Origin: Chrysomallon squamiferum
Lineage: Eukaryota; Animalia; Mollusca
Length of the DNA: 64,000 bases
Reading direction: 5' to 3'
NCBI GenBank assembly: GCA_012295275.1
Contig: CM022676.1
Coordinates: forward strand, 4,402,001-4,466,000
In this document: one piece after another, positions 4,965-64,000 of the stretch
Numbering within the stretch: the first letter of the stretch is position 1
How the letters are laid out: every line of letters begins with the position of its first letter
Notes under the pieces: model-generated
What the model was told of the DNA's origin: nothing
The model's database searches: none
The model's input: only the letters and a program-made list of their open reading frames with translations
Translations under genes and position numbers: made by a program

Positions 4965-5276
4965 CTCTAACTTTCAACACAATTGTGTTACTCGAATATT
5001 GATGATCGATATTTTCACATCGCCAAATATTTCCTTCTTGATTTCTGTTGACAGATGTTATAGTAACTAGAAACTTGTTACGTAAACGTTTGAAAGTGTA
5101 ATTTCCACTAATACGTGACAAAACATTACAGTGTCCGGGACGAAAACTATACTGGTCATAGATGACGTCATTCTCAAACCACCTGACGTGATGTGAAGTT
5201 TGGAAAATCTGACATGTCAACGTAAATGAAAAACCGCTGACAGCGTAAGGGGCAGATCCTCGAAGATTCGGACGTC
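4965..5276 (-). CDS. Copy A Ig3 exon (V-like)
   Basis: 312 nt, cag|...|gtatta; FTLTC..WFEN..VTITSV..EGNIWRC..VLKVR. Confidence 0.88.
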
Positions 5277-10848: not shown

Positions 10849-13413
10849 TTAACACATCTCTGTCTAGTGTTGTACAGACGGTGGCGCAGTCTGATTATCT
10901 GAAACATGGAATGAAATTTTCGTTTCTATAAAACTTGTGAGATGTGGAGAAAACAATAATCGTGCTAACGTGTGAGTATGTACACATATATATATAAACA
11001 CAGTTTCAACATAAAATAACTATTTAGGTAAGCTGTATATGAAAGATAAATGGAATTAATCTTTACAATGTTTCTATTTTAACGCTACCTCATCAAATAG
11101 ATAATAAAACAATTCCGAAAATTCCGAAACATTTCCGATAAGTGATTCAGCTTAGGTATGTACGATTAATCACCGGAAAAGAAATATCTATCTATCCATC
11201 TGTCTATCTATCTATCTTGTTTCTGTTTTCGTGGAAGTGTCTGAATAAGCGTATGGTTAACAAACAATACTGGTTTTCTTCTTTATTATTAATTAATATC
11301 AGTTCTCTTACCATCAGGTATTAAAACGTCATATGTGAACTCATATCGTCTTTCCTCTACAGAAAAATATGAATTCTCTGTATCTTGATGTTCTGCTGCT
11401 GCTGCAGTCTGATTACCTGAAACATGTTTTGTTATATTTAAAAATTGTGATGTGCGAAGAAAACAATAATCGTGCTAATGTGTGTCTGTGTATATTATAT
11501 TAGAAAATAAACTAAAAAGAATCAATTAAGAAGAAAGAAAGAAAGAAAGAAGGAAGGAAGGAAAGAAGGATACAAACAAACAAATATATAAACAAATCAA
11601 TAAATACTTCTTTTGCATCGGAAGTAGAGGAAAACGATGATGACTATGATAACAGACAGAACGAAAAAAGTTCCAAAACCGCTGCCAAATCCTTTTCCAA
11701 ACTGACCGTTGTCTTCAACAGGACCTGAAAATTCAGTAAAGAAAATAAAAACGTGAGATTACGTTATTATATGCTACTCAAAATAAGTTAAGGGTCAAAA
11801 ATGTTTGTCAAAAAAAGAAAAGAAAGATATTTCCAAAAATAATTAACATTTTAATATTTCTCTATCATTTCTGATGCATGCATCCATATCTCTCTCTCTG
11901 TCTCTCTGAATCTCTCTGAATAGTTTTTTTATAACTACTTATGATCTGTATTCAAAATTAAATTCAAAATAAAATAAAGTAAAACAAACGTAAAAAAAAC
12001 CGCGAATGATCCTTGGGGTATACGTCGAAGTTAAACTGAAGATGAGTTACGTACGTGACACGTATCGTACATCCTGTACGTGATCTAATACGTTGACGGG
12101 GTCCGTCTATACTAAGCTGTTCTACAGACTTGATATTCGCACGTAAACATTTATAATTGATTGTCTGATATTTGAAGCATACACCTCTAACAAATACTAA
12201 GTAATTTGTGAATTTTATCATTTTTATTTTTACGATAATTAGATTGTTAGTTAAGAATGTTGTCGTCGAAGTGATAAATACTAAGTTATTTGTTTACTTT
12301 ATCATTTTTATTTTCAATAAAATTAGATTCTTACTTCCACAGCAGTCACTTCCTTCAACAGCAGTCACAACAGATGAAGTATTCAGCTTGAGTGATGTTC
12401 CAGGACAACCTGAAAAAAGCACATTATCAACATGATCATCATTATCGGCAGCATCATCATCATTGTCTTCATAGATTTGTTTATTCTTTCTGACAGTAGA
12501 AATTGTGGGTTGCTCATATTGTTAGTTATGGATGTTGTCGTCGAAGTGATGGTGATAGTGCACTGTTTCAGTTATTGCTGATGATATTATAATTATTACT
12601 AATGTCACTACTATTTATTTATTTTGTTATTTATTTATTTATTTATATTTATTTTGCTAATATGTTTCCTGATTTATTTAGTTCATTGTTTTATCATGAT
12701 TAATAATTCGTAGGATGATGATAATGAAACTGAATTTTACCTCTCACTTCCAGTTTTATTTCATTGCTGCCTGGTTTAAAATCACCACATCTCCACACTG
12801 TTCCATGTTGACTGAGTTTCACTGATTTTATTGTCAGAGCGTTAATACCATCTGAACAGTTAAAAGTGTATTCTTCTGGATGTTCATTATGAAAATGACA
12901 CTGACCGTGTCCATCTACATTACTCATCCTGTATATTGTGTTATTCTCAAACTAGCTTATTACAAAAAAATGAAAATCTCTCTGGCAGGTAAAAGTAAAA
13001 GGTGACCCAAAATTGCATATGTGTTTGATGTTGTTAAATTGTAATAGAGACCTAAAATTTAAAATAATAAAAAAAAGAATTCAAATAAAATTAAATTCAT
13101 TTTTTATAATTACATTCTTGTTACGTATTTGTGTTATTTTTATTAATTTATTTATTTATTATTTATTTATACTTTATTCCATAAGTATGTTACATTACGT
13201 TACGTTACTTTACACTCTGTTATTATATCATGTTGTTATGTTATTGTCGCGTGTTTTAATACAGATATGTTTCAAAAATGCAAATGACACAATTACGCAT
13301 ATATTGTTAAAATTATTCAAGGAAACATAACTTCGACGCAATATAAAGTACATACCTTGTACGTAAATTACACATCCCAGCAACACGAACACACAGAATA
13401 ACTTACAACCCAT
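10849..13413 (-). pseudogene. Gene copy B: compact degenerate paralog
   Basis: Leader 13356-13413 intact. Ig1 12741-13051 is 311 nt (1-nt deletion, W codon changed to TAG). Ig2 is an internally deleted stub at about 12335-12409, and Ig3 and Ig5 are missing. TM 11608-11724, ITAM-like exon 11312-11416 (YFSV-x8-YDVL), terminal exon about 10849-10898. Confidence 0.82.
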
Positions 13414-13539
13414 TTCCAGTGTTTTAGTTTTAACTGCCGTTAATAAAAATATAGTTACTGTCTTTTCTTGACTGCTTTCTCGAATTTACTGCTGTTAATG
13501 TAAAAGCAGTTTTCGACGCCTTCTTGTTGTACTTTATTC

Positions 13540-13797
13540 TGGTAACGTATCAAGTTTCCTTCCTGCTTCATACACAATATGAACACAAGAGTCATTGGCT
13601 CTGCATATTTATTAATAAATTTATCCTGGTAACATATTAGATTTACATCCTGCTTCATATACAATATGAACACTAGTCTCATTGGCTCTGCATATTTATT
13701 AATAAACTTTATTCTGGTAACATAGCAGATTTACATCCTGCTTCATACACAATATGAACACTAGTCTCATTGGCTCTGCATATTTATTAATAAACAA
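13540..13797. repeat. About 90-bp unit repeated three times, triplicating the CCAAT-containing promoter segment of copy B
   Basis: tcctgcttcatacacaatatgaacac..gtctcattggctctgcatatttattaataaa occurs three times. Confidence 0.8.
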
Positions 13798-16445: not shown

Positions 16446-17178
16446 CATCAGGTATTAAGACGAGATATGCGAACTCATATCCTCTTTCTCCCAGAGAAGA
16501 ATATGAATTATCTGTATCTTGATGTTCTGCTGCTGCTGCAGTCTGATTATCTGAAACATGGAATTAAATTATGTTTTGTTTTATTTAAAAATTGTGATGT
16601 GCGGAGAAAACAATAATCATCCTAATTTGTGTATATATATATATAAATACACAAACACATAGATACATACATATACATCAATCTAAGAGTGTGTCTGTTT
16701 ATTATATTTTACAGCTATTTCAAAATCAGTTACGAAGTGTCTCTCCTCAAAATCTAAAACAATTTTAACATTTCATACAAATCTAGAAAACAATAATCGT
16801 CCTAACGTGTGTGTGTGTGTGAGTGTGTGTGTAAATATAAATACAGAAACACATAGATACATACATACATACACACATAGAGTGTGCATGTGTTTTTGGG
16901 TCTAAGAGTGTGCATGTGTTTTTGTAAATTATATTTTACAGCTATTTCAGAATCATTTACAAAGTGTCTCTCTTCAAAATCTAGAACAATTTTAACATTT
17001 CATACAAAGACACTTCTAGACAAAGATATTTATAAATCTATATAAAACTATTTCGTTCATATTTAGAATCTAGTTTTTCTCAAAATCTATCTATCTATCT
17101 ATATCTATATATATATATATACATATGTATATGTATGTATGTATGTATTTATGTAAATGAATGTATTATGTATATATA

Positions 17179-17213
<35 letters not shown>

Positions 17214-17711
17214 TTATGGGGATTTCTTTTCATGAAATTGTTTGAATAAGCGTATGGTTAACAAGCTATACCCGTTTTCTTCTTTAGCATTTATTAATAT
17301 CAGTTCACTTACCACCAGGCAATAAGACGTCATATGGGACGTCATTCCCTCTTTCCTCTAGAGAAGAATGAGAATTCTCTGTATTTTGATGCACATTGCT
17401 GATTCTGAAATTGCAAACGTAAATAAAATATATTACTTATGCATTGATGCAATAATCCGAGAATCAGCAAAAGAATGCAAACACATACATACATACATAC
17501 ACACATACATACACATATACATACATACATATATACATAGATATATACACACACATATATATATATATATACACACAAAATACATAGAGATATACATAAG
17601 CACATTTAGACAGATGCACATAAGCACATGGATTATAGTTTACAGAAAGAAGAATAGTAAAAAAGTATAAATTAATTTACCTTTGTTGGTTCCAAGTAGA
17701 GTTCTTTTCTG
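16446..17711 (-). pseudogene. Copy C cytoplasmic exons: microexon 17681-17711, exon 17313-17404 (HSSL-x8-YDVL), ITAM exon 16446-16550 (YSSL-x8-YLVL)
   Basis: Splice sites and lengths (31, 92, 105 nt) are intact, but out of frame after the fusion exon. Confidence 0.72.
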
Positions 17712-18406: not shown

Positions 18407-18714
18407 TTCCTTTGTTTCGGACGTAGAGAACAACGACAATGAAACGATTCCAAAGATTTTTCTCACTGCTGTTTTCACTTTGTTTTCGGCCTCACAATAA
18501 AATACTTCCCAGTCTGAACAAGATGTCACTATCCAACTGTACTCCAATGTTGTAGCGTTCTGAACTTGATGCAGCAGTTGTCTCCCTTTCAATAATTTAA
18601 TGGCGGACTTCGGATTACTGGCAACGTTACATATAAACGTTGCATTTACTTTATTCTCCCTTGCATGGTTAGTCAAATGTTCAATGATCACTTTCGCTTT
18701 AATGGACGGTTGGT
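18407..18714 (-). CDS. Copy C Ig5/TM-remnant fusion exon
   Basis: Ig5 sequence runs directly into the last ~35 nt of the TM exon and uses its donor; 308 nt. Confidence 0.75.
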
Positions 18715-19464: not shown

Positions 19465-19776
19465 CTCTAACTTTCAACACAATTGTGTTACTCGAATATC
19501 GATGATCGATATTTCTACATCGACAAATATTTCCTTCTTGATTTCTGTTGACAGATGTTATAGTAACTAGAAACTTGTTACGGAAACATTTTGAAGTGTA
19601 ATTTCCACTAAAACGTGGGATAGCAACACAGTGTCCGTCACCAAAACTTAACACGTCATAGGTGACGTCATTCTCAAACCACATGACGTTACGTGTCCTT
19701 TGGAAAATCTGACATGTCAACGTAAATGAAAGACCGCTGACAGCGTAAGGGGCAGATCCCCGAAGATTCGGCGGTC
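19465..19776 (-). CDS. Copy C Ig3 exon (V-like)
   Basis: 312 nt, open, canonical splice sites. Confidence 0.87.
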
Positions 19777-20294: not shown

Positions 20295-20619
20295 CTGTAA
20301 AAAGCAAAAACATTATCAACATCAGCATCATCATTATCGGCAGCTTCATCATCATTATCTTCATATTTTTGTTTTATTCTTACTGGTGGTAGAAATTGTA
20401 GGTTACTCGTATTGTTAGTTATGGATGTTGTCGTGGAAGTGATGGTGATGATGTAGTGTTTGAATTGTTGCTGTTGGTATCATAATTATTACTGATGTCA
20501 CAACTATTTATTTATTTATATTTATTTATTTTCCTAATATTTTTGCTGATATATTTAGTTTATTGTTTTGCCATTATTAACAGTACATATTTCTTAGGAT
20601 GATAATAATAAATAAAACT

Positions 20620-20905
20620 GATTTTACCTCTCACTTCCAGTTTAATTTCATTGTTTTTTCTAACATCTAATAGATACAGTAATAATATTAATAATAAATA
20701 ATTTAATTTTACCTCTCATTTCCAGGTTTATTTCATTTTTTTTTATCATCTAATAGGTACAGTAAAAATATTAATAATAAATAAGTTAATTTTACCTCTC
20801 ACTTCCAGTTTTATTTCATTGCTTTTTTTAACATATAATAGGTACACTAATAACATTAATAATAAATAAGTTAATTTTACCTCTCACTTCCAGTTTTATT
20901 TCATT
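20620..20905 (-). repeat. About 85-bp tandem repeat of the Ig1 exon end plus donor (3 extra units)
   Basis: Repeated ttttacctctcacttccagttttatttcatt. Confidence 0.8.
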
Positions 20906-21195
20906 GCTGTGTGGAAAAATAACACCACATCTCCACACTGTTCCATGTTGACTGAGGTTCACTGATTTTATTGTGAGAGTGTTTAGTTCATCTGAACAGT
21001 TAAAACTGTATTCTTTTGGATGTTCACTAAGAAAATAACACTGACCGTATCTTCTTTCTTCAAGAATCAATATCGTGTATTGTATGTTATTCTCAGACCA
21101 GATAATTACAAGAGCAGGATGTCCTCGACAGGTAAAAGTAAAAGGTGATCCAACAATTGCATATTTCTCTGATGTTGTTAAACTCCAATACTGAC
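20881..21195 (-). CDS. Copy C Ig1 exon (V-like)
   Basis: 315 nt, open; GQYWSLTTSEKYAIVGSPFTFTCRGHPALVIIW...WRCGVIFPHSNEIKLEVR. Confidence 0.88.
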
Positions 21196-23773: not shown

Positions 23774-24114
23774 TTCCAGTATTTTAGTTTTCACTGTCGT
23801 TAATGAAAATAGATACTGTCTTAGCTATGTTTTTCTCTTTTAAATTCTTCCTTGTTTTCTTTCCTGTTGATGAATCACCACGTTTACTTTCTGTTTCGTA
23901 AGTAAAACACCCTTTATATTCTTTGTAAAATAGACAGTAATAGACTGTAATCTGTAATAGACTGGATTCAATCGACTGACTTCTGCAGTCTACGAAAAGA
24001 CAGTCTACACGAAACTGATTATACTTTGAGATTTTATATTATTATTATTTAACGTTAGTGGTATTAGCATACATTTATGTAATAATGCTATGAATTATTG
24101 ACAATGTTTTAGTT

Positions 24115-30541: not shown

Positions 30542-30654
30542 TCATTTGTTCTCAAATTTGATGACGTCATATGGGACGTCATTTCGTCTTTCCTCTAGAG
30601 AAGAATATGGATTCCCTGTGTCTTGATGCTCTGCTGCTGTTGCAGTCTGATTAT
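30542..30654 (-). CDS. Terminal ITAM exon DNQTATAAEHQDTGNPYSSLEERRNDVPYDVIKFENK*
   Basis: tttcag acceptor, YSSL-x8-YDVI, TGA stop. Confidence 0.72.
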
Positions 30655-31540
30655 CTGAAACATGAATTAAATTATCTTTTGACTTACATAATCATTGATA
30701 GCGCGTTCATGTATTTATTGAGTGTATTAATATACATGTAAGAATCTTTGTATGTAGCTACGTACACATACATATCTGAGTGTATGCATATATGTATCTA
30801 CGTGGGTGTTTGTGTGTCTCTATCTACGTGAGTATATATGTATGTGTGTGTAAGTAGGTATGTGTGTGTATGTATGTATGTATGTGTATATGTCAACTTA
30901 CCAGAAACCTGACTAACGTTGTAGTACACAGGCTGATTTCAGCTGATTCTGAAATTTCAAAAGTAAATAAAATATATTACATATACATTGAAGTAATAAT
31001 CTGAAAAGAAACAAAGAAATGCAAACACACGTACATGTACACATACCATACAATCATACATATGTGTGTGTATATATATATAGATAGATAGATAGATAGA
31101 TAGATATTACATACATATATCCATATTACGTACTTACATACATTACATCTTTACGAATGTACATACATACATATATATTAGATATATATATACATACAAA
31201 CATATACACATACAAACATACATAGATACATAAATATATACAGATCCAAACATACATAGATATATACGCAGATACATAGTGACAGACAGACAGACGCACA
31301 TACGTACATATATACATGCTTACATACATTCATCCATATATAAATGAATATAGACATGCCTATGTACGTATTTAAACACATGAATATATTTTAGAGACAG
31401 AAAGAAAATAGTACAAATATATAAATTAAAATACCTTTCTGGATTAGAAGCTGCCTTCTTCTTTCCTATAATATTAATAATAATATACTAATAATAATAA
31501 TAATAATAATAAGAAGAAGAAGAAGAAGAAGAAGAATAGC

Positions 31541-31640: not shown

Positions 31641-33118
31641 CAGTAGTAGTAATCCTAATAGTTGTGGTGGTGTTGATGGTGGTGGCACTGAAACTAGTAC
31701 TAGCTATTGTTATGTATACAATATACCTCTCTCTTCAAATTACGCTATTTAATTGCAGAGCCCTTTATTGGGAATAGTACCTATCGTGAAATATTTTTTG
31801 TATTATGTCTGTCTGAAATAAATCCATGATTAAACCTTGTTCTGCTTGCAAATCATTTTTCTTTATCAGGTGTCTGAAATGCCCAGTTAGTCGCGAACAC
31901 AGGTTTGGTTACTCTGTTCAGGGTAATTGGCTGCATTAGACTAGATTTATCTCCCTTGTACTTATAGGTAAAACTAAATAAAATTCATAATAAAATAAAC
32001 AAACGAACAAAGAAACAAATAAAGATACAAACAATAAACAAGCAATAGCATGATTCAATTAATAAATGAATGAATGGATAAAAGGAGCAACAAACAAATG
32101 CACGAATGAATGAATAAATAATACAAAGTAAAATAAAAAGAAATATACAAATAAGTAAACAAAGAAGTAAAAAAGAAAGAAAGAAACTAGCAGACAAACA
32201 AACAAATAAATAAGTAAATAAGAAACAAACAAACCCAACAAAAATAAATAAATAAATCAGTAAATAAATAAACAAATAAAGAAATACTTCTTTTGTTTCG
32301 AACGTAGAGAACAACGACAATGACAATTATAACAGACAGAACAAGCAAAGTTCCAAAACCGCTGCCAAATCCTTTTCCATACTGACCGTTGTCTTCTACA
32401 GAACCTAAAAATTCATTAACACAAATAAAAATTTGAAACTGAGTTAATATATTGTTTATATTCCTTCAATAATTAGTTAATTTTTTATATTTGATATTAT
32501 CAAAACATCTTCACAGACTAGGTAATTATTTATTTGATGTTGCTAAATTATCTTCAGTTAAAACGTAACTTTCATTCGTATTAATTGAATTTTCTTTAAC
32601 AAACATGCATATACTCATACTACATAAACACAAACTGCAAAAGCTCAGAAATAGAGACGCACACAGACACACACGTATGTACATACAGACAAATATACAT
32701 ACATAGATACATACATATATTTTTTCATAAACATACACACATATGGACACACGTATGAAGAATCAAGATAACGTACATAGAAGAAACGATTCCAAAGATT
32801 TTCTGACTTCTGTTTTCACTTTGTTTTCACTTTGTTTTCGGCCTCATAATAAAATCCTTCCCAGTCTGAACAAGATGTCACTATCCAACTGTATTCCAAT
32901 GTCGTGGCGTTCTGAACTTCGTGCAGCAGCTGTCTCCCTTTCAGTATTTTAATGGCAGACTTCGGATTACTATCAACGTTACATACAAACGTAGCATTTA
33001 GTTTATTCTCCCTTGCCTTGTTAGTTAAATGTTCAATGATCACTTTCGTCATAATGGACGGTTGGTATGGAGTCAAAAAAAGTACACTTTAATATTTCTC
33101 TATCATTTATTATCCATC

Positions 33119-51613: not shown

Positions 51614-51662
51614 ATGAGTTGTAAGTTATTCGTGTTACTGGGGTGTGTATTGTACGTACAAG
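51614..51662 (+). other. Short-type leader exon upstream of copy E with a GC donor
   Basis: MSCKLFVLLGCVLYVQ(G)|GCATGT; paralogs have GTATGT. Confidence 0.62.
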
Positions 51663-53580: not shown

Positions 53581-53892
53581 GTCAGTATCACAGTTTAACA
53601 ACATCAGAGAAATATGCAATTGTTGGATCACCTTTTACTTTTACCTGTCGAGGAGTTCCTGCTCCTCTGATTATCTGGTTTGAGAATAACACAGAATACA
53701 TGTTGGCTGTTGTAGTAGGAAGATACGGTCTGTGTTATTTTTGGGATGAACATCCAGAAGAATACACTTTTAAGTGTTCAAATGGTATTAACACTCTGAC
53801 AATAAAATCTGTGAAACTCAGTCAACATGGAACAGTGTGGAGATGTGGTGATTTTAAACCAGGCAGCAATGAAATAAAACTGGAAGTGAGAG
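53581..53892 (+). CDS. Copy E Ig1 exon (V-like)
   Basis: 312 nt, open; GQYHSLTTSEKYAIVGSPFTFTCRGVPAPLIIWFEN...WRCGDFKPGSNEIKLEVR. Confidence 0.88.
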
Positions 53893-54432
53893 GTAAAAAA
53901 CAGTTTTATTATTAATATTATTACTGTACCTATTATATGTTAAAAAAGAAAAAAACAACAACAATGAAATAAAACTGGAAGTGAGAGTTAAAGTTAACTT
54001 ATTTATTATTAAAATTATTACTGTACCTATAACATGATAAAAAAAAGCAATGAAATAAAACTGGAAGTGAAAGGTAAAATTAACTTATTTATTATTAATA
54101 TTATTACTGTACCTATTACATGATAAAAAAAAGCAATGAAATAAAACTGGAAGTGAGAGGTAAAATTAACTTATTTATTATTAATATTATTACTGTACCT
54201 ATTACATGATAAAAAAAAGCAATGAAATAAAACCGGAAGTGAAAGGTAACATTAACTTATTTATTATTAATATTATTACTGTACCTATTACATGATAAAA
54301 AAAAGCAATGAAATAAAACTGGAAGTGAGAGGTAAAATTAACTTATTTATTATTAATATTATTACTGTACCTTCTATATGTTAAAAAAAACAAAAGCAAT
54401 GAAATAAAACTGGAAGTGAAAGGTAAAATCAG
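53866..54432 (+). repeat. About 86-bp minisatellite built from the Ig1 exon end plus splice donor (6 extra units)
   Basis: aatgaaataaaactggaagtgagaggtaaaattaacttatttattattaatattattactgtacc repeated. Confidence 0.88.
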
Positions 54433-54765: not shown

Positions 54766-55026
54766 CTGGTCCTGGAACATCACTCAAATTCAATACTTCG
54801 TCTGTTGTGACTGCTGTGGAAGGAAGTGACGTCACAGTGTCTTGTTCGGCGACCTGTTTCATCACGTGTAACTATGAATGGAAGCTCGCAGATGACGTCA
54901 TAAGTAACACAAGCATTCTCTCATTGGCTAATGTTCACATAACACAATCACGTGTCTATGTGTGCGTGGCTGAAAATCCAGATACGAAACAAACTGGCAA
55001 TAAAACACTTCATTTGACTGTTCATC
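54766..55026 (+). CDS. Copy E Ig2 exon (C2-like)
   Basis: 261 nt, cag|...|gtaagt, open. Confidence 0.88.
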
Positions 55027-55293: not shown

Positions 55294-55605
55294 GACCGCC
55301 GAATCTTCAGGGATCTGCCCCTTACGCTGTCAGCGGTCTTTCATTTACGTTGACATGTCAGACTTTCCAAACTTCACATCGCGTCAGGTGGTTTGAGAAT
55401 GACGTCAGCTATGACGTGTTAAGTTTTGGTGACGGACACTGTATTGCTATGCCACATTTTAGTGGAAATTACAGTTTCGAATGTTTCATTAACAAGTTTC
55501 TAGTTACTATAACATCTGTCAACAGAAATCAAGAAGGAAATATTTGGCGATGTAAAAATATCGATCATCAATATTCGAGTAACACAATTGTGTTGAAAGT
55601 TAGAG
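55294..55605 (+). CDS. Copy E Ig3 exon (V-like)
   Basis: 312 nt, cag|...|gtatta, open. Confidence 0.88.
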
Positions 55606-55878: not shown

Positions 55879-56139
55879 ACGGTCCCGGTAGTTCAGTTCG
55901 AGTCAATTCTTCATCTGACATCACTGTAGACGAAGCAAGTGACGTCACAATATCATGCAAAGCCGATTGTTTTATCAAATGCCTTTACAGATGGGAACTG
56001 ACCAATCAGATTGTCAGTAACAACGAATTACTGGCACTGACTAATATCACGAGATTTCAAGATGGCGTCTACACATGCATTGCTTCTAATCCGGATACGA
56101 ACCAAACATCGCATAGCAAAATTATTATTAACGTTACGT
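55879..56139 (+). CDS. Copy E Ig4 exon (C2-like)
   Basis: 261 nt; DGPGSSVRVNSS..CKADCFIKCLYRW..QDGVYTCIASNP. Confidence 0.87.
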
Positions 56140-56424: not shown

Positions 56425-56701
56425 ACAAACCGTCCATTAAGACAAAGGTGGTCACTGAACATTTGAGTAACAATGCAAGGGAGAATAAACTAAATGCAAC
56501 GTTTATATGTAACGTTGACAGTAATCCGAAGTCCGCCATTAAAATACTGAAAGGGAGACAACTGCTGCACCAAGTTCAGAACGCCACGACATTGGAGTAC
56601 AGTTGGATAGTGACATCTTGTTCAGACTGGGAAGGATTTTATTGTGAGGCCGAAAACTGTGAAAACAGCAGTGAGAAAATCTTTGGAATCGTTTATTCTT
56701 T
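56425..56701 (+). CDS. Copy E Ig5 exon with a net 2-nt deletion near its 3' end
   Basis: 277 nt versus 279 in A; GAAAAC-T-GTG versus GAAAAC-AAA-GTG. Confidence 0.78.
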
Positions 56702-57064: not shown

Positions 57065-57181
57065 GCCCTGCAGAAGACAGCAGTCAGTTTGGAAAAGAAT
57101 TTGGCAGCGGTTTTGGAACATTCCTTGTTCTGTCTGTTATCATTGTCATTGTGGTTGTTCTCTACGTCCGAAACAAACGAA
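57065..57181 (+). CDS. Copy E transmembrane exon
   Basis: 117 nt; PAEDSSQFGKEFGSGFGTFLVLSVIIVIVVVLYVRNKR in the paralogous frame. Confidence 0.83.
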
Positions 57182-57861: not shown

Positions 57862-57892
57862 CAGTAAAGAACTCAACTTGGATCCAACAAAG
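57862..57892 (+). CDS. Copy E 31-nt microexon
   Basis: tacag|...|gtaaat, phase 1 to 2. Confidence 0.68.
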
Positions 57893-58166: not shown

Positions 58167-58252
58167 CAATGTGCATCAAAATACAGAGAATTCACATTCT
58201 TCTCTAGAGGAAAGAGGAAATGACGTCCCATATGACGTCTTATTGCCTGGTG
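58167..58252 (+). CDS. Copy E cytoplasmic exon NVHQNTENSHSSLEERGNDVPYDVLLPG
   Basis: 86 nt; first Tyr replaced by His, and the remaining VPYDVL fits the ITIM consensus. Confidence 0.77.
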
Positions 58253-58393
58253 GTAAGTGAACTGATATTAATAAATGCTAAAGAAGAAAACGAGTATAGT
58301 TTGTTAACTATACGCTTATTCAGACAATTTCACGAACATAAATCCCCATAAACATATATACATACATGCATAATACATACATACATACATACA

Positions 58394-58429
<36 letters not shown>

Positions 58430-58808
58430 TATATACATACATTCATATACATACATACATACATACATACATGCATATATAGATAGATAGATAGGTAGAT
58501 AGATTTTGAGAAAAACTAGATTCTAAATATGAAGGAAATAGTTTTATATAGATTTATAAATATCTTGGTCTAGAAGTGTCTTTATATGAAATGTTAAACA
58601 TTTTCTAGATTTGAAGAGAGACATTTCGTAAATGATTTTGAAATAGCTGTAAAATATAATACACAGACACACTCTTAGATCGATGTATATGAATGTATCT
58701 ATCTATTTGTGTATTTATATATATATACACAAATTAGGACGATTATTCTTTTCTCCGCACATCACAATTTTTAAATAAAACAAAACATAATTTAATTCCA
58801 TGTTTCAG

Positions 58809-58913
58809 ATAATCAGACTGCAGCAGCAACAGAACTTCAAGGTACAGAGAATTCATATTCTTCTCTAGAGGAAAGAGGATATGAGTTCGCATATAACGTC
58901 TTAATACCTGATG
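58809..58913 (+). CDS. Copy E ITAM exon (ENSYSSLEERGYEFAYNVL)
   Basis: 105 nt, phase 1-1, tttcag|...|gtaaca. Confidence 0.8.
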
Positions 58914-59739
58914 GTAACAGAACTGATATTAATAAATGATAAAGAAGAAAACGAGTATTGTTTGTTAATCATACGTTTATTCAGACACTTTCACGAAAAA
59001 AGAAAGAAGATAGATAGATAGATAGATGGATGGATAGATAGATATTTCTTTTCCGGTGATTACTAGTATATATATAAAGTGAAAATTCCTTATACGAAAT
59101 GTTTCGGAATTTCCAGAATTTTTGGATTTTTGGATTTTCGATTTGATGAGATAACCTTAAAATAGAAACATTTTAAATATTAATTCGATTTATATTTCAT
59201 ATGTAGCTTAAGTAGATAGTTATTTTATGTTAAAATTGTTTTAAATGAGAAATGACCCATCCTTACAATTACATATTAATTAATAGGTAGATCGGTACAC
59301 ACACACTTACGTACGTTACAGATTTAGATGCACACACAGACATAGCATACATGAAAACAACGATATTTTAGTTTGATTAATATAGGTGTAAAAACTTGCG
59401 TTTCCGAATTAATTCACTAGAAGGTACAGAAATATTATATATTTATGTTGCAAAGAATGTATTTTCTTTTCCTTTTGTTGTTCCGAAGTATTAGATGTTT
59501 TACAGATTTTGAGAAAGAATAGATTCTAAATATGTTCGAAATAGTTTTAAGTAGATTGATAAATGTGTTTGTGTAGAATTGTCTTTGTTTGAAATGTTAA
59601 AATTGTTCTAGATTTTGAAGAGAGACACTTTGTAAATGATTTTGAAACAGCTATAAAATATAGTATACACAGCCACATCCACTTTCTTACATCGATGTAT
59701 ATTTATGTATCTATATCTGTATGTATGTATCTATGTGTC

Positions 59740-59777
<38 letters not shown>

Positions 59778-59860
59778 CACGCACGTTAGCACGATTATTG
59801 TTTTCTCCGCACATCACAATTTTTAAATAAAACAAAACATAATTTCATTCCACGTTTCAG

Positions 59861-59965
59861 AAAATCAGACTGCACCAGCAACAGAACTTCAAGAATCATG
59901 GAATTCATATTCTTCTCTGGGAGAAAGAGGATATGAGTTCGCATATGACGTCTTAATACCTGGTG
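59861..59965 (+). CDS. Copy E ITAM exon (WNSYSSLGERGYEFAYDVL)
   Basis: 105 nt, phase 1-1, tttcag|...|gtaagt. Confidence 0.8.
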
Positions 59966-60425
59966 GTAAGTGAACTGATATTAATAAATGATAAAGAAGA
60001 AAACGAGTATTGTTTGCTAATCATACACTTATTCAGACACTTTCACCAAAGAAAACAACAAGGTTGTCTTACTGTTGTGATGTACAAAGAATGGGAACAT
60101 GTCATACATATATAGATAGAGAGGTAGATAGATAGATATGGTTGTTTCTTTTCTGGTTATAAATCGTATATATATATTATATAAGTTGACAAACCCTTAT
60201 CCGAAATGTTTCGATTTTCGATTTGATGAGATAGCCTTAAAATAGAAACATTCTAAATACTAATTTCATTTATGTTTCATATACACCTTAACTAAATAGT
60301 TATTTTATGTTAAAATTGTGTTTGTGTGTTTATATATGTCTACAGACACACACGATAGCACGATTATTGTTTTCTCCACACCTCACAAGTCTTTATAGAA
60401 ACGAAAATTTCATTGCATGTTTCAG

Positions 60426-60475
60426 ATAATCAGACTGCGCCAGCGGCTGTACAACAAGATACAGAGATGTGTTAA
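60426..60475 (+). CDS. Copy E terminal exon DNQTAPAAVQQDTEMC*
   Basis: Same acceptor and start as the ITAM exons; relative to the D' terminal exon the ITAM core is deleted. Confidence 0.68.
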
Positions 60476-63400
60476 AGTTTGAAAATAAACGAAACTGCTG
60501 TTCATGAATGACAAAGAAGGAAACAAGTTCTCTTTGTTAATAATTCACTTCTTAAATCTGTTTCATGAAAACCTACAGAATATTAATTTATTACAACTTT
60601 TTTTTATTAAAATACAAAGACTTCAGTTTGTACAATGACACCACATTTGAACTGCGTAAATAGCTACCTGTGGGAAATGTTATAAATATTTTAATGAGTT
60701 GCTAATCGCGAATTTTTAATCATTCATTACCATTGTCTGAGATGTGACTCTAACTATATGAAAACTTCGGGAGATTTCTGACTTAAAATTAAACTATTTA
60801 CCCACGTATACCTTAACTAAAAGAAACATTTGATCAATCTCAGTAACACTGATCTCATTCGGAAATGTTTCATCTTTTAATCTTTTATATTTCCTCAGAT
60901 GTAAGATCCTTGACGTCATGAAAGTCTTTATTTTGTTGTATAACAGTAACATGAGAAATGAAATTCCTGGCTGACAATGTCAGAATAAATCTATATTTAC
61001 AGCTGGGTTTTTTTTATATACTAATAAGAGTGTTCTTTCCACGGTTTCGTAAACTTTATCTGTCAAAGCTGTTCTCTTTTTTGGTGATACTTGTGAGTTT
61101 TTCATATTTTTATAAGCATAATTCTACATGATGATTTTGTAAAATTTGGACGAGGGTTCGAGCGTACCAATCGATTTTGTTTGATTTTTGTTGTTTGTTT
61201 GTTTTTTATATTGAAATATACGGCTTAGATTGGATTTAAAAGTCTTTTGTTTTTTCAAACAATGTTTCAGTATGTGCATGTTTCCTGTTAAATGTCTTTC
61301 TCTATACTGTTAGATTTTATTTGGAATTGTTGCTTATGTAACACAGACCGAAATGTCAGAAAATGGGTTAAAGGAATTGTGAGCAAGCAGTTAGAATTGG
61401 AAATAGGACAAGGGACATAATGAAGGGAACTGATTTAACTACTAAACTAGTGTGTAGTATTTCTCTGTCACTATGTCATGTTTCTTTATCATATAGCAGG
61501 TTTGTTTATGTGTTCGCGATAACTAAAACTGTTTGATGAAAACCTTCAGAATATTAATTTCTTAAAAAATTGTTTTAATTAAAATACAAAGACTTCAGTT
61601 GCTACAGTGACACCAGATTTGAACTGTGTAAAGAGCTACCTGTGAGAAATGTTATAAACATTTTAAAGAGTTGCTAATCGCGAATTTCTACCATTCATTA
61701 ACATTGTGTGAATTGTGAATGTAACTATATTAAAATCTCCTGTTATTTATCATGTAAAATTAACGTATTAAATAGATACACATAAACAAAAAAAAAAAGT
61801 TTTATCAATCTCAGTAATGGCTTCCCGCGATGATACCCAAGAAATGGAACTTCGTTCATATTCGCAAATTTTCTATTTTTATTTTATTTAATTTTTAAAT
61901 AAACATTTCTTTTATAATGGTGACATGAGAAATGAAATTATTGGCTGACAATGAGAGAATAAAACTATATTTACAGTTTTCTTTACTAACAAGAGTACCC
62001 GCTCTAGTGTCTGGTAACCTGTATCATTTTTGGTATACTTTTGAGTTCTTCATCTTTTTACACTCAATCTGCATTGAGTGGGGTTTAATTCTGTATGATG
62101 ATTTTATGACGATTTCTGTAAAAGTTTGAGGAGTGCGTACGAACTGATTTTTCATATTAACTGCTTGTGTAGTATTTAAAACGTACGAATACATGGGATT
62201 AACGTGAAGAACTGTTCAACCCGTGGAATTCCATTGTTGATACTTCGTTTCCAGGACAACGGATGACACGGCAAAGCAATATAGCCAGATGACGAGAGGA
62301 ATATTGCCAGGAAGGTTCTGACGTCATGACATTTCTATTATTTCTCAGTAACCACCGCTTTGAAACACAATGGCTTTTGCTAACAAAAAAATCTCTCGAT
62401 GATTTAAATAACAAAATTTCAGCTACAGTGTACTGTAAGCAGCGGTATCAAAAAAATAAAAAATAAAAAATAAATCATAATCTGCAGAAATGGATCATAT
62501 ATGATATACTGCATAGCTACTTGTTGACCAGAAAAATAAATAAATAAATAAAAATAATAAAATCCACATACAATATTTTCACTGTTCATGTGTTTCTCTG
62601 TTGTAATGAATCGACTTGTGACTGACATTCTGATGTAGAATTACTGTTGTACGCCTTCAGTATTTTTTGCAAACTTCATTTATAACAAAGAAAAGGAACT
62701 GAAGAACTGGGTTAGAGAGAAATTCAAATTAACTGGTGTAATCACTAATATCCGTACACTTTTACATCTCTGAATACAGATGTATTACTAAAATATTGCT
62801 TTGAATTAATTAGGAAACTTATCTCTGTTGTCCTGTTTAATTTGTTTTTTTTCTTTCTTTTACCCTCTTTTCAAACTTCTAGAACTGTACTAGCAGATGT
62901 AAATAGTTGATTTTACTTGTTATCCAGACTTAAAAGGAACTCGGGAAGAAGAATCATTATAGAAAAAAGAAGGAAAAATGAAGATTGCATATTGCTGCTT
63001 GTGTAACAATGACTGAAATGATAGAAAATTTGTTAAAGAATTTGTGAGCAAGCAGTTGGAACGGGAAATATGATAAGGGAAGTAATGGAGGGAACTAGTG
63101 TGTACTATTTTTCTGTTCATTATATTATCTTTTTTTATATTAGCAGGTTTCTTTCTGTGTTCGTGATCACAACGATTTTTTCGTTGACATAATAAATACA
63201 TTTTCCAGTTCTCTGCTATATTTTATTCTTTCCCTTCGTACACAATAAGTAAACTAATGTTTCTCTTTGTTTTTCAAATGTGTTCATCTCTTTGTGTGTC
63301 TTTGTTTATAACAAGCTTTCTCCATCGATTTTTTATTTCAACTGTTCTGATTATACACACCTCTCTTTTCTTTTCTATTATTCTCAATTTATCTGTTTAT

Positions 63401-64000
63401 CTGTCTGATTGTTCTTTCTTTCTTTACTCACACACAATAGAAAGAGTATGCTACTCAATGACTTGACAGAAAGAGTGTCATGTGCTTTAGGTTATATCGT
63501 TAGTTCGTCTTTTTTTCATGCGTCACTGGTTTTAAACAGAGTGGTAGGCTCAGAACATACAACAATAACACTGACCACGTGATGTCATGACGTATATATA
63601 TATACATATATTTAAATATTACATATACCAAAATAAAACTGACGAATGTTTAAATATATATATATAGATAGATATATATGCGTCATAACGTGACTTGGTC
63701 AGTTTTATTTTGGGATGTTGTAACTCTACACTCTATTTATGTGTGTGTGAGTGTGTGTGTTTGTGAGTTATGTATATATGTATATATATATGTATATGTA
63801 AACACAAACATATACCCACATACATACATATATACATATAGAGATATATACATACATCTAGACATACTGTATATACATATATGTATAAATGCAAATATGG
63901 AAATACATACACCTGTATGGTAAAATATCTTCACACATACTTATAAACGTACATAAATACACTCGGACATGAATAAAAATAAAAGCAATAAAAAAAAGAA

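Follow-up and report, generated by a model that had tools for sequence, protein, structure and literature searches.

Results

A tandem cluster of immunoglobulin-type receptor genes

The window analysed here is a stretch of 64,000 nucleotides from contig CM022676.1 of Chrysomallon squamiferum (positions 4,402,001 to 4,466,000 of the forward strand). Its GC content of 25-35% throughout is that of AT-rich animal DNA. It contains a tandem cluster of five genes coding for receptors of the immunoglobulin (Ig) superfamily, with genes A to D on the minus strand and gene E on the plus strand, as well as a gap of 200 N.

Gene E begins with a signal-peptide exon (51614-51662), whose splice donor is GC where two 98.8%-identical copies have GT. 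Two V-like domains, Ig1 (53581-53892) and Ig3 (55294-55605), alternate with two C2/I-like domains, Ig2 (54766-55026) and Ig4 (55879-56139), all four on exons of phase 1-1. They are followed by the 277-nt Ig5 exon (56425-56701), which is 2 nt short of the 279-nt copy in gene A and whose inclusion shifts the frame ahead of the 117-nt transmembrane exon (57065-57181, phase 1-1). The transmembrane helix is devoid of charged residues. With its signal peptide, Ig domains and single transmembrane segment, the gene model is that of a type I receptor of the Ig superfamily.

Pfam recognises Ig domains on all five Ig exons of E, two of them above the curated cut-offs. The V-like profile weakly matches the V domains of T-cell receptors and antibodies, a structural model of Ig1 (pLDDT 84) leads to V-set folds, and the cysteines C22 and C88 are invariant across the V-like exons (7/7). 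A profile search among 1.84 billion proteins returned 107 hits, of which the top three belong to the vent gastropod Gigantopelta aegis; "CEACAM-like" proteins of this species are the closest named relatives. Three more distant hits of the same search, P0025, P0042 and P0065, also have a transmembrane segment and an ITAM-like tail. Queried with Ig3, the ESM Atlas gave unnamed clusters, mostly from molluscs. Neither the motif exon nor Ig3 retrieved anything in word-index searches of proteins. For the motif exon the ESM Atlas yielded no usable hit; the three motif exons scanned with Pfam had no match, and Rfam found none (0).

Several other features of the locus deserve mention. The window holds 12 copies of the signal-peptide exon; seven such exons come with their upstream flank and without an Ig exon of their own (at 23785, 26775, 27984, 36267 on the plus strand, 41952, 47148 and 53105). 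Gene D is split between Ig3 and Ig4 by an inverted block. An 85-86-nt tandem repeat, in which the final 30 nt of the Ig1 exon are copied along with the donor that follows them, occurs six times in E (53959-54428, plus strand) and three times in C (20603-20908, minus strand); it forms a row of spare donors, the use of which would add stop codons. Upstream of the signal exon of B, an 88-nt unit is repeated three times (13531-13795), each time with a CCAAT box. Behind gene E, the region 60721-63428 consists of non-coding blocks that recur 5-7 times in the window at 78-88% identity, with no Rfam match. In the Ig3 exons (55294-55605, 4965-5276 and 19465-19776), pN exceeds pS in all three pairs (p 0.06-0.09), a weak hint of diversifying selection on which we make no claim; for Ig1, none of the six pairs reached significance.

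One ITAM per exon in the predicted cytoplasmic tail

Behind the transmembrane exon of E lies a cytoplasmic exon of 31 nt (57862-57892, phase 1 to 2). Three homologous motif exons follow, named m1 (58167-58252), m2 (58809-58913) and m3 (59861-59965), and then a terminal exon that runs to the stop codon (60426-60475). Exons m2 (ENSYSSL-EERGYEFA-YNVL) and m3 (WNSYSSL-GERGYEFA-YDVL) each measure 105 nt, are bounded by AG and GT, pass from phase 1 to phase 1 and encode a full ITAM pattern of the form YxxL-x8-YxxL. The donor of m2 is GTAACA, compared with GTAAGT in most copies. Exon m1 has 86 nt, passes from phase 2 to phase 1, and is symmetric only jointly with the 31-nt exon; His replaces its first Tyr, and the remaining VPYDVL fits the ITIM consensus. 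The intron upstream of m1 resembles the one that precedes an exon with a YxN motif in gene D. Judged from this sequence, m1 is likely a deletion chimera that joins the acceptor of a YxN exon to the 3′ part of a motif exon.

The segments 58501-59242 and 59504-60322 are 75% identical over 846 alignment columns, and the 80-nt flanks of m2 and m3 are 91% (upstream) and 94% (downstream) identical: m2 and m3 were duplicated together with about 800 nt of flanking DNA. In the terminal exons of both E and B we counted by hand a common deletion of 46 nt relative to the intact terminal exon of D, taken in this comparison as 30545-30654; in E it removes both tyrosines and shifts the frame.

The other four genes, all on the minus strand, carry homologous exons in different numbers. 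Gene A has at least two, since it extends past the window edge: an m1-type exon with an intact ITAM pattern (1127-1212) and a 105-nt ITAM exon (409-513). Gene C has two, an m1-type exon with His for the first Tyr (17313-17398) and a 105-nt ITAM exon (16446-16550), while most of its transmembrane and terminal exons are missing. The pseudogene B retains a degenerate 105-nt motif exon with YFSV (11312-11416) and a terminal exon with the deletion of E and an earlier stop (10849-10898). Gene D has a single, terminal motif exon with one intact ITAM pattern (30542-30654), which ends on F-E-N-K-stop and has the layout found in G. aegis. It is preceded by the YxN (YYNV) exon (30902-30948), in which D has an in-frame stop; in RNA, the homolog of this exon is found joined to a motif exon by splicing.

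These results bear on a first-pass annotation of the same DNA, which had described a symmetric 105-nt phase-1 exon encoding exactly one motif and duplicated in tandem with its flanking intron. The description is accurate for m2 and m3, including the duplicated flank, and does not apply to m1 (86 nt, phase 2 to 1, His for Tyr). The three motif exons ascribed to E are indeed three homologous exons, although only two bear full ITAMs; we arrived at the same ITAM-deleted terminal exon in E, and at the same numbers for A (at least two), C (two), B (one) and D (one, terminal).

The full pattern YxxL/I-x6-8-YxxL/I occurs in six of the nine motif exons of the window (two in E, two in A, one in C, one in D and none in B). 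It is broken in m1 of E and of C, where the first Tyr is His, and in B, which has YxxV. An acidic residue three positions before the first Tyr is flagged in four of the nine copies (E m2, A m2, C m2 and A m1); it was counted in only three of the six full motifs, and is absent from E m3 and the terminal exon of D. The second Tyr lies in an ITIM consensus, (I/L/V/S)xYxx(I/L/V), in four of nine copies (m1 of E, C and A, and the terminal exon of D) and not in m2 or m3. By chance, an open ITAM pattern arises in frame in 23 (m2) and 22 (m3) of 100,000 base shuffles, or about 0.02%, and in 0.35-0.38% of residue shuffles of the two exons. A tree of the nine exons resolves the m1 clade alone, with support for one of six inner branches.

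In the gene model as in the G. aegis proteins, the motif exons sit behind the transmembrane exon, an arrangement that in E requires the skipping of Ig5. Ahead of the ITAM exons, D and the two spliced RNAs described below carry the YxN motif (YYNV), a predicted Grb2-type site, whose counterpart in G. aegis is YSN/FYN; A, C and E would have lost the YxN exon in the fusion that produced m1.

Motif exons are spliced in register

Sequences from four runs, all of them contigs, were aligned to positions 58785-58960 only. Seven RNA contigs aligned, two of which are informative. The contig X3 record 12 (500 nt, depth 3.4) begins with the end of a YxN exon and continues with four pieces that match m2, without introns. 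The implied exon starts, at 55, 142, 247 and 352, give periods of 87, 105 and 105 nt, all multiples of three, compared with a spacing of 640-1050 nt between the motif exons of E in the genome. The first joint is covered by 31 letters, 8 nt of exon end and 23 nt of exon start, and falls at the predicted boundary; two of the three motif-to-motif joints are positioned by length alone, and the letters displayed for the second exon do not extend over its second Tyr. One exon is shortened by a deletion of 18 nt, which keeps the frame. Against m2, the third piece has 1 difference in 64 letters and the first has 17 in 103; the differences in the first piece, together with the YxN exon before it, assign the transcript to a paralog and not to E. 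It is a single contig from a single run, whose 5′ part is missing and which does not reach the transmembrane exon.

The contig X2 record 9 (381 nt, depth 8.5) joins the end of a YxN exon to one motif exon and then continues into the 3′ flank. Other contigs, among them X3 records 10, 11 and 13, retain the intron, and are thus either unspliced or DNA. Among the RNA contigs on 58785-58960, none links a transmembrane exon to a motif exon, and we saw neither two forms of one gene nor skipping of a motif exon within a gene. In run X1, which looks like DNA, 172 contigs fall on the m2 exon, 13 of them at ≥99% identity, which suggests many copies without giving a copy number.

Paralogs of E thus transcribe, and splice in frame, tails of one motif exon as well as tails of four. 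The symmetric phase-1 module is seen in m2 and m3 (105 nt, phase 1 to 1) and in the periods of the paralog RNA, and not in m1. That motif exons are spliced in the proposed frame, an assumption on which the first-pass annotation depended, is borne out for the family by X3 record 12; its proposal that copy number differs between paralogs by exon duplication agrees with the DNA as well as with the RNA tails of one and four exons.

A one-ITAM outgroup and the origin of the module

The RefSeq relatives from G. aegis, annotated "CEACAM1/5-like", are XP_041379697.1-700.1, XP_041372832.1, XP_041346676.1 and XP_041373955.1. Their best matches are 45-59% identical over the Ig1 and C-type exons, and XP_041379697.1 (isoform X1) has the same V-C-V-C-Ig-transmembrane order as the genes described here. 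The G. aegis tail presents a YxN motif, then YSSL-x8/9-YxxL, and has the 31-nt exon as well: isoforms X1 and X2 differ by exactly 31 nt after the transmembrane segment, and 58 of 58 tail residues are compatible with such an exon, its borders being deduced from the protein isoforms and not from DNA. Exactly one ITAM pattern with an upstream YxN is found in the in-frame tail of each of the four transmembrane-bearing G. aegis loci retrieved (4/4), whereas the motif is stacked here. The two species thus have both ectodomain homology and tail layout in common. BLASTP of m2 against one G. aegis protein was not significant, and the homology of the tails is drawn from position, exon size and motifs. 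Among the predicted isoforms XP_041379697-700 (P0125, P0127-P0129), some skip the first V domain, the transmembrane exon or the 31-nt exon; skipping of the latter shifts the frame with loss of the ITAM, a possible off-switch.

Since G. aegis has one ITAM, stacking is the derived state. After the motif, the G. aegis proteins continue with T-F-D-N and D with K-F-E-N-K-stop, a likeness that points to the single terminal exon of D as the older state. In alignment, the internal exons have their donors where this terminal exon has its last codons and stop, and over the 80 nt that follow, identity to the 3′ flank of D is 65-74%. Read through its donor, m3 continues with G-K-stop, as do five of the eight internal exons in all; the remainder meet a stop within nine codons. 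Terminal, intermediate and internal exon ends are all preserved: an intermediate end, M-F-N followed by AGTAAGT, was found among the X1 contigs as a loose end. We also considered the AATAAA present 13-25 nt behind seven of the eight internal donors as a poly(A) site and rejected it, as the hexamer occurs at 3.4 per kb and strand and the copies are related.

On this comparison, the older layout, as in G. aegis and copy D, would have comprised the transmembrane exon, the 31-nt exon, the YxN exon and, entered in phase 1, a single terminal ITAM exon. After a duplication of this exon in the present lineage, one copy likely acquired a splice donor across its final two codons and the stop. Asn-Lys-stop at the end of the terminal type corresponds to GT AAG TGA in the internal type, so that two A>G changes, from AAT AAA TGA to AGT AAG TGA, would suffice. 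Such a donor would turn the exon into a symmetric phase-1 module and its old 3′ UTR into an intron, after which unequal crossover likely stacked and deleted modules.

Conservation of the motif and damage to the gene copies

Among the nine motif exons of the window, pN/pS amounts to 0.94 when all motif codons are taken and to 0.43 for the four key codons, and 9 of 30 non-key codons are also invariant; from these sequences, selection is not detectable among the window copies. The variants listed for m2 in the reads include an amino-acid change in 20 of 30 non-key codons and a motif-breaking change in none of the four key codons (one has L>I). In this hand tally among listed variants, avoidance of the key codons has a p of 0.02, rising to 0.14 when L>I is included; the tally may be too favourable, as the listing leaves out 10 variant rows and the known Tyr>His is absent among the variants listed. 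Seven rows chosen for having a full motif, four from window exons and three from G. aegis tails, were compared: all seven (7/7) keep YSSL, the second Tyr and the L/I after it, and no spacer position is invariant. The expectation that Tyr and Leu positions would be better kept than their neighbours is thus upheld across these selected rows, but not by the window pN/pS of 0.94.

As assembled, all five copies in the window carry lesions, which the first-pass annotation does not mention. Gene A has a frameshift in Ig2 and B several lesions; C has lost most of its transmembrane and terminal exons, and one of its lesions is a homopolymer +1; D has lost its signal-exon donor and Ig5 acceptor and has the stop inside the YxN exon. 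In E we find the GC donor of the signal exon, the frameshift in Ig5 and the weak donor of m2. If Ig5 is included, the frame shifts before the transmembrane exon and the motifs are never read; if it is left out, 562 codons are open through the transmembrane exon, m1, m2, m3 and the terminal exon. In-frame cryptic donors exist inside the Ig5 of E, and we found support for none of them. Four copies have an Ig5 exon, and in three of them it is broken, each time by a different lesion (56425-56701, 32777-33066 and 18407-18714); one G. aegis model (P0124) is without an Ig5-type domain, so that a form lacking Ig5 is not foreign to the family. Taken as sequence, this exon may often be skipped or dispensable. 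Gene E is probably compromised as a receptor gene, and we lean towards its being in decay unless Ig5 is skipped.

Discussion

We regard as probable that these genes form a multi-copy family of Ig receptors whose tails are built from repeated one-ITAM exons spliced in frame, and in which the number of motifs is predicted to scale the recruitment of a Syk/Shark-type kinase. Exon anatomy, flank homology, the in-register RNA tails of paralogs with one and four exons and the one-ITAM outgroup are the observations from which this reading starts. Clustering by ligand would lead to tyrosine phosphorylation and to docking of Syk or Shark on each module, and of Grb2 on YxN; more modules would give a stronger response or a lower threshold, in an immune or phagocytic role. 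The expectation of Syk signalling draws on known ITAM biology and on the oyster receptor CgIgR, which recruits CgSyk and promotes phagocytosis according to the accessible text of PMC6994640.

If instead only a one-ITAM ancestor works, the stacked exons could be duplications tolerated in decaying copies, their number being functionless. Lesions in 5/5 window copies, the pN/pS of 0.94, a four-exon RNA without its 5′ part, and the heavy local duplication attested by orphan signal exons, deletions and the 86-nt exon-end repeat all agree with such neutral debris. It is nevertheless unlikely, as the tail with four exons is found in RNA, spliced in frame, and even its exon with 18 nt less preserves the frame, as the listed variants spare the key codons, and as E and B retain internal motif exons though their terminal ITAM is lost. 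The differences between paralogs could also be errors of assembly, created by collapsed or expanded repeats and false frameshifts. The 200-N gap and the homopolymer +1 in C speak for this, and read alignment covered 58785-58960 only, so that the Ig5 frameshift, GC donor and splice junctions of E rest on the assembly; still, the copies are 5-25% divergent, each with indels of its own, independent RNA contigs carry the one- and four-exon tails, and the 172 X1 contigs, 13 of them at ≥99%, fall on the exon, which makes an artefact very improbable.

The tyrosines could also act otherwise than as Syk-activating ITAMs, serving as docking or endocytosis sites, either YxxL/V for AP-2 or ITIM-type for SHP phosphatases, in which case extra exons would mean extra internalisation or inhibition. 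Four of nine copies fit the ITIM consensus at the second Tyr, which is the only one of the pair retained in m1 of E and C, and an equal ambiguity is discussed for Hydractinia Alr tails in the accessible part of 10.1101/2022.03.25.485889. Against this stand the Tyr pair with a spacer of 8-9 residues, kept out to G. aegis, the position of m2 and m3 outside the ITIM consensus, and a transmembrane helix without charged residue, which leaves the tail as the sole evident signal; we hold this alternative to be quite improbable and prefer the activating, one-ITAM-per-exon reading.

A more far-reaching version of this preferred reading is doubtful in our eyes. One donor gain would have created a plug-in module, of which paralogs would have zero to four or more. 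As reading through an internal donor leads to G-K-stop, each such donor would double as a latent stop, and the number of ITAMs could be adjusted within one gene, by skipping or by read-through. Ectodomains would then be wired to different activation thresholds, for instance for symbionts and for pathogens.

TCR zeta, an adaptor with a fixed set of three ITAMs, each split by an intron, arose by internal duplication and is the model for ITAM number setting signal strength. It resembles the present family in having several ITAMs per tail, and is not a ligand-binding receptor of variable count. The N-terminal V domain of vertebrate CEACAMs lacks the canonical disulfide, whereas C22 and C88 are present here in 7/7 V-like exons. 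Vertebrate CEACAMs also have YxxL motifs characteristically split by phase-0 introns in a four-exon tail, as the accessible text of PMC2832619 describes, whereas here a whole ITAM lies in one repeated phase-1 exon. As these two defining features were examined and are lacking, we do not file the family as CEACAM. According to the same partial source, CEACAM3-type receptors of mammals and marsupials do combine V and C2 Ig domains, birth-and-death clusters and an ITAM in their own tail, and the marsupial ITAM-bearing CEACAMs have a Grb2-type YxN too (PMC2832619); the likeness is likely convergent.

Closer to molluscs, oyster CgIgR has five Ig domains, a transmembrane segment and a cytoplasmic ITAM like the present family, but a single ITAM; the word "exon" has 0 hits in the accessible text of PMC6994640, and the likeness noted here is one of architecture. 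Clusters of ITAM-bearing Ig receptors are reported, in the portions available of these sources, from Hydractinia (10.1101/2022.03.04.482883, 10.1101/2022.03.25.485889), Botryllus (PMC11507803) and vertebrates (PMC2832619, PMC2413239, 10.1101/2023.02.21.529360). Hydractinia Alr and Botryllus FcoR are likewise tandem families of invertebrates, rich in pseudogenes, with ITAM/ITIM tails that exist in alternative forms; contrary to the genes described here, they have several motifs per exon or swap whole tails, and tandem one-ITAM exons are not described in these portions. Our literature search, whose coverage excludes most subscription journals, found neither tandem one-ITAM exons nor ITAMs reported for the present gastropod family.

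The immune families that the G. aegis genome paper (PMC7895826) names as expanded include "CEACAM5"; orthogroup OG0000013 of its supplement, a putative match to the present family, counts 130 G. aegis genes, against 101 for Chrysomallon squamiferum, 59 for Lottia and 0 for Octopus and Euprymna. "ITAM" occurs 0 times in the main text and 10 supplements of that paper. The spliced one-ITAM-per-exon module of variable copy number and traceable origin is real, and belongs to a little-described family of gastropod receptors; that motif number tunes signal strength is our hypothesis.

The locus likely preserves the steps that lead from a terminal exon to a symmetric, duplicable module. A signalling reading is thereby offered for a family whose only annotation so far has been "CEACAM-like" and whose expansion was noted in a vent snail with symbionts. 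To our knowledge, work on how ITAM number relates to signal strength has relied mostly on the fixed TCR/CD3 set and on engineered receptors. The present family, a natural one, changes its ITAM count by whole exons and has a one-ITAM outgroup, so that the relation could be tested with natural tails and selection analysis.
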